Shown piece by piece: positions 17,301 to 20,300 of a stretch of 64,000 nt of DNA. The position numbers and the translations under genes were made by a program. Every line of letters begins with the position of its first letter. Position 1 is the first letter of the stretch. The notes beneath the pieces were generated by a model. It ran no database searches and was not told the DNA's origin. It was given only the letters and a program-made list of their open reading frames with translations. The stretch spans positions 2,356,001 to 2,420,000 of the forward strand of contig CM035355.1 in the NCBI GenBank assembly GCA_020137815.1, written 5' to 3'. The DNA is from Hormiphora californensis. Lineage: Eukaryota; Animalia; Ctenophora.

Positions 17301-20300
17301 ATCTGAGAAGCAATTAAACAAACAAACTGGCTTATTATTATACTTACTGAGTGTGTGTACAGGAGTGTACATAGTAGTTCGGGTTATCATTTCCATCTAC
17401 AGCATGACTGGGTGAACCATTATCATGCATAGTGGTGCTCTGGCTAGTAGGTTTATGCAGTGCAATGTTGTACGCTGATCAGGGGAGAAGGTGAATAGAA
17501 TTTGATCCCTAAAAAACTGGCGAAACAGTGAAAAACAAGTAAAACAGTCATGATAGCGCCGCTGGATACTAAAGGACAAAATTAAATTCTTGGCTACGTA
17601 GTATATAGCAACCCTTGAGTCGCTTGACACTGTTTTCGTGCTCCGCACAATTCAAAGCAGCCCCCTCCGAAGAACAAATAGGGACGTGCTCAAACTATTG
17701 TCTATCAACTCACGTTCACATTCCGATTTATCATTGTTAGGTCGGGTTCCCTTTTTGCACTGCTCACAAGTGATCTGTCCCACGTCCTTATTGATGCTGT
17801 TATCACATGTTTTACATGTGGCTAGACCTGTGACGTCAGCGTACTTTCCAACTGGGCACAGGGTACACTTGGTCGAACCTGTGGGGGAGGGGGTCGGTGA
17901 TGAATATCTTTTCAAATAAAAATAAAAAGATAAAGAGGAGTAGGAAATGGACACTTATTGGATAGAAACATGGAAGGACCGAGGAAAAAAGTTGAAAAGA
18001 GAGAGAGAGAGAGAGAGAGAGAGAGAGAGAGAGAGAGATCCCTCGCCATTACCCATAGTCGTATCGGACCGCTCTCCCGCCATTCGGAGAGCGATACAAC
18101 TATGGGTATTGCCTCGAATTTTCATTTGAAGATGAAATTTACCCATAGTCGTATTTTGGTACCCATAGTTGTATTTGACGGAGAGCGTCGGGAGAGGGTC
18201 GGAGAGCGTCGTTATTTTACCCATAAGTGTATAACTATACAACTATGGGTAAATTTAGGATAATTTTTGGATCAATTGGGGGTTACTTAGAGTTCAATTT
18301 GTGATAACCTCGGAGTTCATTCGGGACCAATTAGGAATAATTTCATTGTCAATTCAGGATCACTTCGGGGTCAAATTAGGATCACTTCGAAGTTGATTTG
18401 GTTTCAATATAAGAATTATTTAAAGATAAATCCAGTGTCATTTTGGTATAACTTCGGGGTCAATTTGGGAGGATCCAGGTTAATTTTTTGGGTCAGAAAA
18501 TTAGTAATTTCGACAACTTTATCAATATCACACAGCGAAACCCAGATTTACCAGCCCTGTTCTACCGTACCGCCGATATACCACGTGGATAGATCTTTCC
18601 TGAAGACAAGGGCAAACTTATACTGATTTGCCGGCACCCTAATTTGTCGGACATTTAGCCCTTCGACATTCGATTTACCGTGCTTTCGATTAGCCATGCA
18701 CATCCCGTTTCCCCGGCTTTTTAAATACCGTGCCATTCTATGTATGTATTAGAGTGTCCCATAAATATTGTCCATCGGACATTTTCAATAGAATCGTATG
18801 TTTTGAACTAAAATATATGGTTCTACGGTATTCCTGACACCCTTGGCGTCATTTCTATATGTCAGGCATTCTACCTGCCCATACAGAAGGGTAGCCATAG
18901 GTGAATTTAGTAGGCCAGTCTTGTAGCGATCTTAAAATTGGCCCGTTCTGTACCTGCCCAATTTCATCTCAGCCACATCTAAGTCTAAGTTCGCAATTTC
19001 GCCAAAATACTGATCGTAAAAACCTAGTGGAACCCAAACGTCCCACTATACGTTTCCTGGTGACATCCTTCAGGCCGGAAGATATTGGGAGATAGGTTGA
19101 GGCCTTGTGAGTACTGAAAAATACATGGCATCAAATGCTGATGCTAATTTTCCATTTTGACCCACTTCTTGTTGACAGACAAACTTCTCAAGTATTGTCC
19201 AGTATATTAGGACCAATTTGTAGTTTTTTGCGACAAACCGGACGCAAATCGGTCCAGTGGATCGCGTGCAACATCCCTAGAAAGAAACCACCCATTTTGG
19301 GGCGGAGCCGACACCTGTATGCAGGGGTTGCCGGTTGCGCCAGGTGTCTATGTCACCAAGAGTTATGCGGTCGTCTAACGTGCTACCTAAAGTTGTATCA
19401 AAATGAAGATACTTAATCTGACCACAAGAGAGCAACTCTAGCCATCTTATTTGACTTGCAAAGAGTACCGATTGGTGAAAAAGTGTGAAACACGAGAGCA
19501 ACAAAAAGCAATAGGTAATATAGATTTACACATAGTATAATGTATGCCTTTTGAATATAGGCCTTCTTCAGGATTAAAACCAAATACAGTCTGGTAGCAC
19601 TAACGAGGACTTCCAGTGACCAGGAAGGGCTTTTCCTGACCAGGAAGTGTCCTCACTTTTATACAACTATGGGTACCATATAAGTTACTAACAGCGCAGT
19701 TACCCATAGTTGTATCACCAATACGACTATGGGTACTCTTCCACTTTGTTTTACCCATAGTCGTATTGACCACATACAACTATGGGTACTTTCGTGGCCG
19801 GTGTACCCATAGTCGTATCAACTACATACAACTATGGGTGGTTTAACCGCAGTGTCCGAAGCACGTGCTATCCAAAGTTGTATCAAGATGACGATCCTTT
19901 CTGATTACAAAACATCCACTCTAACCAAACTTATTTGACTCGCAAAGAGTACCGATTGGTGAAAAAGTGTGAAACACGAGAGCAACAAAAAGCAATAGGT
20001 AATATAGATTTACACATAGTATAATGTATGCCAATTTTGAATATAGGCCTTCTTCAGGATTAAAACCAAATACAGTCTGGTAGCACTAACGAGGACTTCC
20101 AGTGACCAGGAAGGGCTTTTCCTGACCAGGAAGTGTCCTCACTTTTATACAACTATGGGTACCATATAAGTTACTAACAGCGCAGTTACCCATAGTTGTA
20201 TCACCAATACGACTATGGGTACTCTGCCACTTTGTTTTACCCATAGTCGTATTGACCACATACAACTATGGGTACTTTCGTGGCCGGTGTACCCATAGTC

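Follow-up and report, generated by a model that had tools for sequence, protein, structure and literature searches.

In loxP/Cre and dif/XerCD, two inverted arms surround a short polar core, and recombination takes place between two full sites of this kind. More generally, the sites of tyrosine recombinases (YRs) are described as 11-13-bp arms around 6-8 bp, and for Cryptons, short terminal direct repeats of 4-6 bp are regarded as the recombination substrates (PMC3212892, in its available text). The same source presents a circle with short terminal direct repeats as the proposed Crypton model, and the mechanism is characterized in the accessible part of PMC13565253 as proposed, without experimental demonstration. 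A Chlamydomonas Crypton carries the target word at one terminus (PMC9977147, in an excerpt). Some CryptonV families have been reported to insert specifically in microsatellites (PMC8869645, in the passage available, citing Kapitonov and Jurka 2012, Repbase Reports 12:2034), and the available sections of PMC5753468 and PMC4455052 list CryptonV by name only. The literature searched yielded neither an account of CryptonV termini nor any YR element that targets GA; Repbase Reports and the 2019 Kojima review were outside this scope and may contain one.

Larger elements have provided evidence for joined ends. In Starships, the circle junction was observed in sequencing reads (36 versus 6,959 end reads, ~0.5%; bioRxiv 10.64898/2026.09.21.753150, in the part available), and in nimaviruses, reads that join the two ends across the target repeat indicate episomes or concatemers (available text of PMC10871703). 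A YR, a circle, a target-like terminal word and repeat targeting are already in print for Cryptons, Starships and nimaviruses, and the excised circle that an earlier note proposed for the locus studied here is the standing Crypton model.

This locus was analysed in a window of Hormiphora californensis DNA, meaning the whole stretch of 64,000 nucleotides. It contains an element of ~27 kb that sits within a (GA)n tract and is probably a real microsatellite-targeting YR element that was recently active. Judged by its sequence features, it would best be filed as a new CryptonV-like member, the kinship being one of description only. We give an even chance to the reading that it is a CryptonV-like DNA transposon whose predicted YR excises a circle and re-inserts it into GA tracts in one orientation.

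The likeness to CryptonV, compared by description from partial sources, is that of an animal DNA element with a YR in a microsatellite; the traits of the present copy are a length of 27 kb, 28-bp terminal inverted repeats (TIRs), subterminal motif arrays and a 23-exon gene. CryptonF/S/A elements have YR-only coding, a short direct repeat of the target word at their termini and a proposed circular intermediate, all of which may apply here too (PMC3212892; PMC9977147; both in part for the Cryptons), but the available text of PMC3212892 and PMC13465315 describes them as being without TIRs, whereas a 28-bp TIR with 25/28 matches is present here, and the targets given for them are short words (CAYCG, TATGG) rather than long dinucleotide tracts. 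Starships are likewise large YR elements whose termini match the target in place of a TSD, some with TIRs (PMC10104507, in part); according to the same excerpt they differ in being fungal, with a DUF3435 captain at the 5' end, cargo genes and a TTAC-type target, and no cargo was identified here. Endogenous nimaviruses, which target telomeres, offer another case of YR-associated insertion in a simple repeat in animals (PMC10871703, in part), but they are viral genomes of hundreds of kb with a (TAACC)n target, and no viral genes were seen in the present element. With loxP/Cre and dif/XerCD, the locus would share the arm-core-arm layout, here predicted for the circle joint, whereas recombination here would involve a plain (GA)n tract in which no more than one half resembles an arm.

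Termini of the element

The left remnant of the (GA)n target tract (17998-18038, plus strand) is perfect over 20.5 units and is followed by the left TIR of 28 bp (18039-18066, plus strand), which includes TCC (18039-18041) and CTCGCC (18042-18047) in the window sequence and may represent the left recombinase-binding arm. The right TIR (44962-44989, minus strand) has six outer letters (44984-44989) that read as GA, and the right (GA)n tract (44984-45095, plus strand) has the same polarity as the left one and contains interruptions, so that both flanking tracts have GA on the plus strand. The junction letters given in the earlier note were confirmed in the window sequence on both sides, namely (GA)20-TCC-CTCGCC with TCC starting at 18039 on the left, and on the right GGCGAG at 44981-44986, after which (AG)n continues to ~45095.

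Exactly one inverted partner of 18039-18066 was found in the window (44962-44989, minus strand, 25/28, 3 mismatches), and none of 100 shuffles gave two matches for the 28 letters. When the two ends are aligned column by column, the left end starts TCC-CTCGCC, and the right end, in reverse complement, starts TCT-CTCGCC. The T and C at 18039-18040 find their partners at 44989-44988; the one failure is C at 18041, which faces A at 44987, where G would be the perfect partner. On the right, the outer letters of the arm, GAG AGA (44984-44989), are indistinguishable from the host GA tract, and the counterpart of the left TCC is AGA, which looks like microsatellite. It had been claimed that TCC lies outside the left TIR only; this was not confirmed, as the inverted repeat runs through TCC, with AGA as its right partner and one base different. 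The one-sided overhang of three bases depends on where the right TIR is chosen to stop. Read from these letters, the asymmetry of the ends amounts to one base plus an unreadable right boundary, and the three-letter asymmetry is mostly an illusion created by a single mismatch.

With regard to target duplication, the claim that a classical TSD is absent stood in one respect, as no distinct TSD is visible, but not in another, as a TSD could hide inside GA. Both ends adjoin GA of the same polarity, which is compatible with terminal direct repeats of 4-6 bp whose length is unreadable in a repeat. Cut positions are unreadable in a repeat as well, so the core length and position proposed below rest on analogy.

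The single mismatch beside the ends is also used in a different explanation, in which the YR acts on a folded single strand: by analogy with integrons, the TIRs would pair as an attC-like stem, the 18041/44987 bulge would select the strand, and the element would be copied in by replication. The rise in copy number of Chlamydomonas Cryptons despite excision (PMC9977147, in part) speaks for such copying, but the ends to be paired lie 27 kb apart, and we consider this explanation very improbable.

Subterminal motifs and internal array

A 15-bp motif, TACCCATAGTYGTAT, has 61 matches when up to 2 mismatches are allowed, all of them within 18050-44978, and none was found in the ~37 kb of the remaining window at the same threshold (<=2 mismatches). 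Because all matches are inside and none outside, the two ends belong to one element. Six copies form the left subterminal cluster (18050-18251, both orientations), 43 lie in an internal scrambled array of segments that are 95-99% identical (19209-24332, both orientations), and 12 form the right subterminal cluster (44651-44978). The subterminal motifs are likely to be accessory (arm-type) binding sites, a putative role. As core-binding arms they were rejected, as the terminal copies would sit at least 16 letters apart at a joint.

The internal array includes a unit of 223 bp that carries eight 15-bp end motifs and has differing neighbours. The joins fall at short shared words, which are GGAC/GTCC on one side and CACGTGCTA on the other. 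Recombinase-driven inversions, template switching or an assembly problem may account for the scrambled arrangement.

Predicted tyrosine recombinase gene

A gene model of 23 exons (29997-43694, plus strand) was built by hand from sequence alone; it encodes 1145 aa with no internal stop, and 22/22 introns are GT-AG. The model includes an 11-aa repeat block, a weak zinc-finger-like stretch and a C-terminal YR-like domain, in which R921, K980, R1044, H1075 and Y1084 are predicted to be catalytic and M1041 occupies the His position.

An ordered four-block YR motif test gave a score of 30.2 for the C-terminal 430 aa of the spliced model, compared with a mean of 5.5 and a maximum of 24.0 for 1000 shuffles (0/1000 as high), 3.6 for the reversed sequence and 2.4 for the host permease. 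The motif blocks were derived from 131 prokaryotic YRs (11 + 120, the 120 being dominated by one family), and the spacing ranges between blocks were set by us. All blocks fall on the expected motifs, with R921, R1044, H1075 and Y1084 in register; the weak points of the match are the K block (-1.9) and the His of HxxR, which is replaced by Met. The His-to-Tyr spacing of the model is 9, as it is in lambda Int and Cre. Scores of whole-domain HMMs were weak, at 3.7 bits (2/500 shuffles as high) and 4.9 bits (3/1000 as high), and one of these HMMs puts the first Arg motif in register. At the level of single exons, Pfam and PHROG scans gave no YR match, homologue searches scored 0/4 and 0/2 candidates and returned no CryptonV sequence or other relative, and the ESM Atlas and PDB sequences contained nothing matching. 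Four matches of a representative search were rejected as relatives, being unrelated repeat proteins. On these motifs, the predicted gene very probably encodes a tyrosine recombinase. A YR had been implied by the earlier note, and the presence in the element of a YR-like gene whose motif score none of 1000 shuffles reaches is in agreement with this.

Several other features of the gene model were observed. In one exon of 1.4 kb (34469-35875), a 33-bp (11-aa) repeat occurs 34 times and precedes two Cys/His clusters, for which the zf-BED score is weak. An upstream exon (32714-32796), which by eye we take to be chromodomain-like, has no Pfam match. Two introns of the model hold stretches of ~150 bp (30153-30300 and 36880-37030) that appear related by eye.

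Short TIRs together with subterminal motif arrays are typical of CACTA/EnSpm-like elements, and both are present here. The element could accordingly be of the cut-and-paste type, moved as linear DNA by a DDE transposase that is encoded elsewhere or unseen, with the YR as a passenger or resolvase. A 2-bp TSD would be invisible in GA, the region of 24.3-29.9 kb has no assigned gene, and a DDE enzyme drives the (AT)n insertion of TIR-flanked nimaviruses (PMC10871703, in part). On the other side, no transposase or reverse transcriptase match was obtained in 73 element ORFs (76 scanned of 163 ORFs), which is weak counter-evidence as the exons are short; the only long gene found in the element is the YR-like one, and TIRs alone do not explain the fixed orientation relative to the GA strand. 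Transposition of this kind is considered improbable, though less so than the folded single strand.

Left ends in public contigs

Among 16 public runs, 14 contain part of the left end, all in the form of contigs, and four runs (X1, X2, X5 and X6) were compared. X1 and X2 come from the same study and may include the source of the window, while X5 represents an independent study and sample. For the region 18025-18150, 17 of the 18 aligned contigs were inspected, all of them left ends, and 10 reach the junction. GA-TCC-CTCGCC is exact in seven of these ten (X1 records 1-3, X2 records 6-8 and X5 record 10). X5 record 10 shows 19 letters of GA and TCC unbroken at a depth of 1050, versus 85 for an X5 contig from inside the element, and this junction contig splits downstream into subfamilies. 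Depth is not copy number, but depth and subfamilies together suggest many ends with one junction type.

The remaining three contigs deviate to different degrees. X5 record 9 (depth 10) has one unlocated mismatch, and X6 record 17, which carries a second species label, has one mismatch within 18025-18047, the 23 letters that include TCC. In X1 record 5 (depth 186), likewise a left end, TCCCTC is missing, and the end is duplicated in tandem over 13 bp behind an imperfect GA tract; it is possibly an imprecise integration or a repair product. This record, which corresponds to 18045-18074 of the window, has about the depth of unique flank in X1. The prediction that other copies keep TCC on the left and share one orientation in GA was borne out by the seven exact contigs but not by X1 record 5. 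Nine of the ten junction-reaching contigs align into a GA tract and the tenth is preceded by an imperfect one, all at the left end only. Microsatellite-specific insertion, a CryptonV trait, was found for the window copy and, at the left end only, for the contigs.

Part of the left flank of the window is not covered in X5 and X6, a hint that their element ends lie at other loci, although a coverage hole proves nothing. The X5 contigs show neither a joint nor a branch with short GA; because rare variants are lost from contigs, the absent joint is no evidence against circles. The start of an X5 contig 19 letters into GA was rejected as a minimum target length, as records 9 and 10 cover an identical stretch, as would be expected of a bubble caused by a one-letter variant. 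One of X1 records 1-3 starts at GATC with adapter, a library artefact. In X1, X2 and X5, a second subterminal variant of 18160-18518 was observed with ~8 substitutions and indels, diverging after 18514-18518, and probably represents a sister family or else a non-autonomous derivative. In metagenome contigs, pattern scans gave 0 matches, and the 120 single 15-letter matches of a viral-contig scan were taken as chance.

Proposed recombination site

In the CryptonV-like circle that we favour, the right arm would end with GGCGAGAGA and the left arm would begin with TCCCTCGCC, one mismatch apart, and the two would serve as core-binding arms on either side of a pure-GA core of 6-8 letters. The joint would read GGC(GA)6-7TCC, that is, the right-end letters GGTAAAGGC, then (GA)n, then TCCCTCGCC, with a core of 6 or 8 letters corresponding to 6 or 7 GA units; such a joint does not occur in the window. 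Such a core would be identical to the target and would stay at both ends as an invisible direct repeat, and its purine/pyrimidine polarity would set the orientation of insertion. Read towards the core, the arms resemble GA repeats, so the upstream half of the target could mimic an arm. TCC would be part of the left binding arm, outside the exchanged spacer. YRs usually need matching cores, and the fixed TCC therefore fits the left arm better than the spacer; being fixed and pairing with the opposite end, it fits an arm.

The earlier note had instead placed TCC within the spacer of the circle, writing the spacer as [(AG)nATCC] and regarding it as what YR chemistry requires. In that geometry, the arms end in GGCGAG / CTCGCC and the spacer is AGATCC or AGAGATCC, integrated in a homology-poor manner similar to IntDOT or Tn916; 3 or 4 GA units leave a 6- or 8-letter spacer between the hexamers, and the spacer agrees with the target in its AGA half. 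In a variant that falls under the same estimate, replication would resolve a single strand exchange, and a strand bias would always leave TCC on the left. In Tn916-type chemistry, however, a spacer exchanged without homology forms a heteroduplex, and some of the progeny would consequently lack TCC or have it at the right end; segregation of a mismatched spacer between daughters would be expected, whereas the deepest contig shows TCC fixed. Since two of the three bases in TCC have a pairing partner at the right end, the 6-letter spacer comes close to a palindrome and is poorly suited to provide polarity. IntDOT needs 1-2 matching bases by the first cut and its overlap sets orientation, but it is the exception among YRs, most of which need identity across the overlap region, and ATCC is without a match in (GA)n (PMC2817482 for the overlap rules, in its available text). 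The spacer proposed for the circle is probably misplaced, and integration of this kind seems unlikely.

The number of GA units at the joint, 3-4 versus 6-7, places the crossover. With an intact-looking YR gene and sharply defined, conserved ends, the question of the Crypton mechanism becomes directly testable at this element. An integrase that inserts 27 kb into (GA)n tracts in a fixed orientation could serve as a tool.

A possible joint in one sample

The left-end contig of X2 (sample S2) is 165 letters long and starts 14 letters before TCC, and its upstream pieces are of 46 and 39 letters with depths of 29 and 19. When head-to-tail joints were simulated as a k=31 graph, 7 GA units gave pieces of 165, 46 and 46 letters, and 3-6 or 8-9 units gave other piece lengths. 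By reasoning rather than by simulation, a hemizygous insertion or a microsatellite with an interruption would equally produce the X2 lengths, and the pieces have a depth far too high for free circles. It is doubtful, and on our estimate improbable, that the branch in X2 represents a head-to-tail joint, i.e. a tandem dimer.

The joint GGC(GA)7TCC would consist of near-perfect arms around an 8-letter pure-GA core. A more far-reaching proposal is that of an animal integrase that uses any (GA)n microsatellite as its attachment site, with GGC(GA)7TCC perhaps already present as DNA in S2; we hold this to be speculative and unlikely. If true, this would be the first time that the recombination site of an animal Crypton has been mapped, and the enzyme would be a candidate for scar-free, oriented integration of large DNA.

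Genomic surroundings and nested insertions

Potential GA targets are dense in this genome. The window contains six further long GA/TC tracts (453-544, 7439-7578, 9499-9869, 14159-14326, 56325-56386 and 63776-63850), and no element ends were found at these six. A host amino-acid permease ORF of 468 aa (15378-16784; Pfam AA_permease_2, E 2e-30) lies 1.2 kb left of the element. An Rfam search of 17.5-45.5 kb gave 0 matches.

Part of the 27 kb is made up of nested inverted-repeat insertions (25768-27127, 27281-28648, 35979-36196, 40558-41178 and 18747-18980). The last of these has very high depth in all four runs (X1, X2, X5 and X6), and one of the nested insertions contains a (CT)19 tract at 27986-28024.
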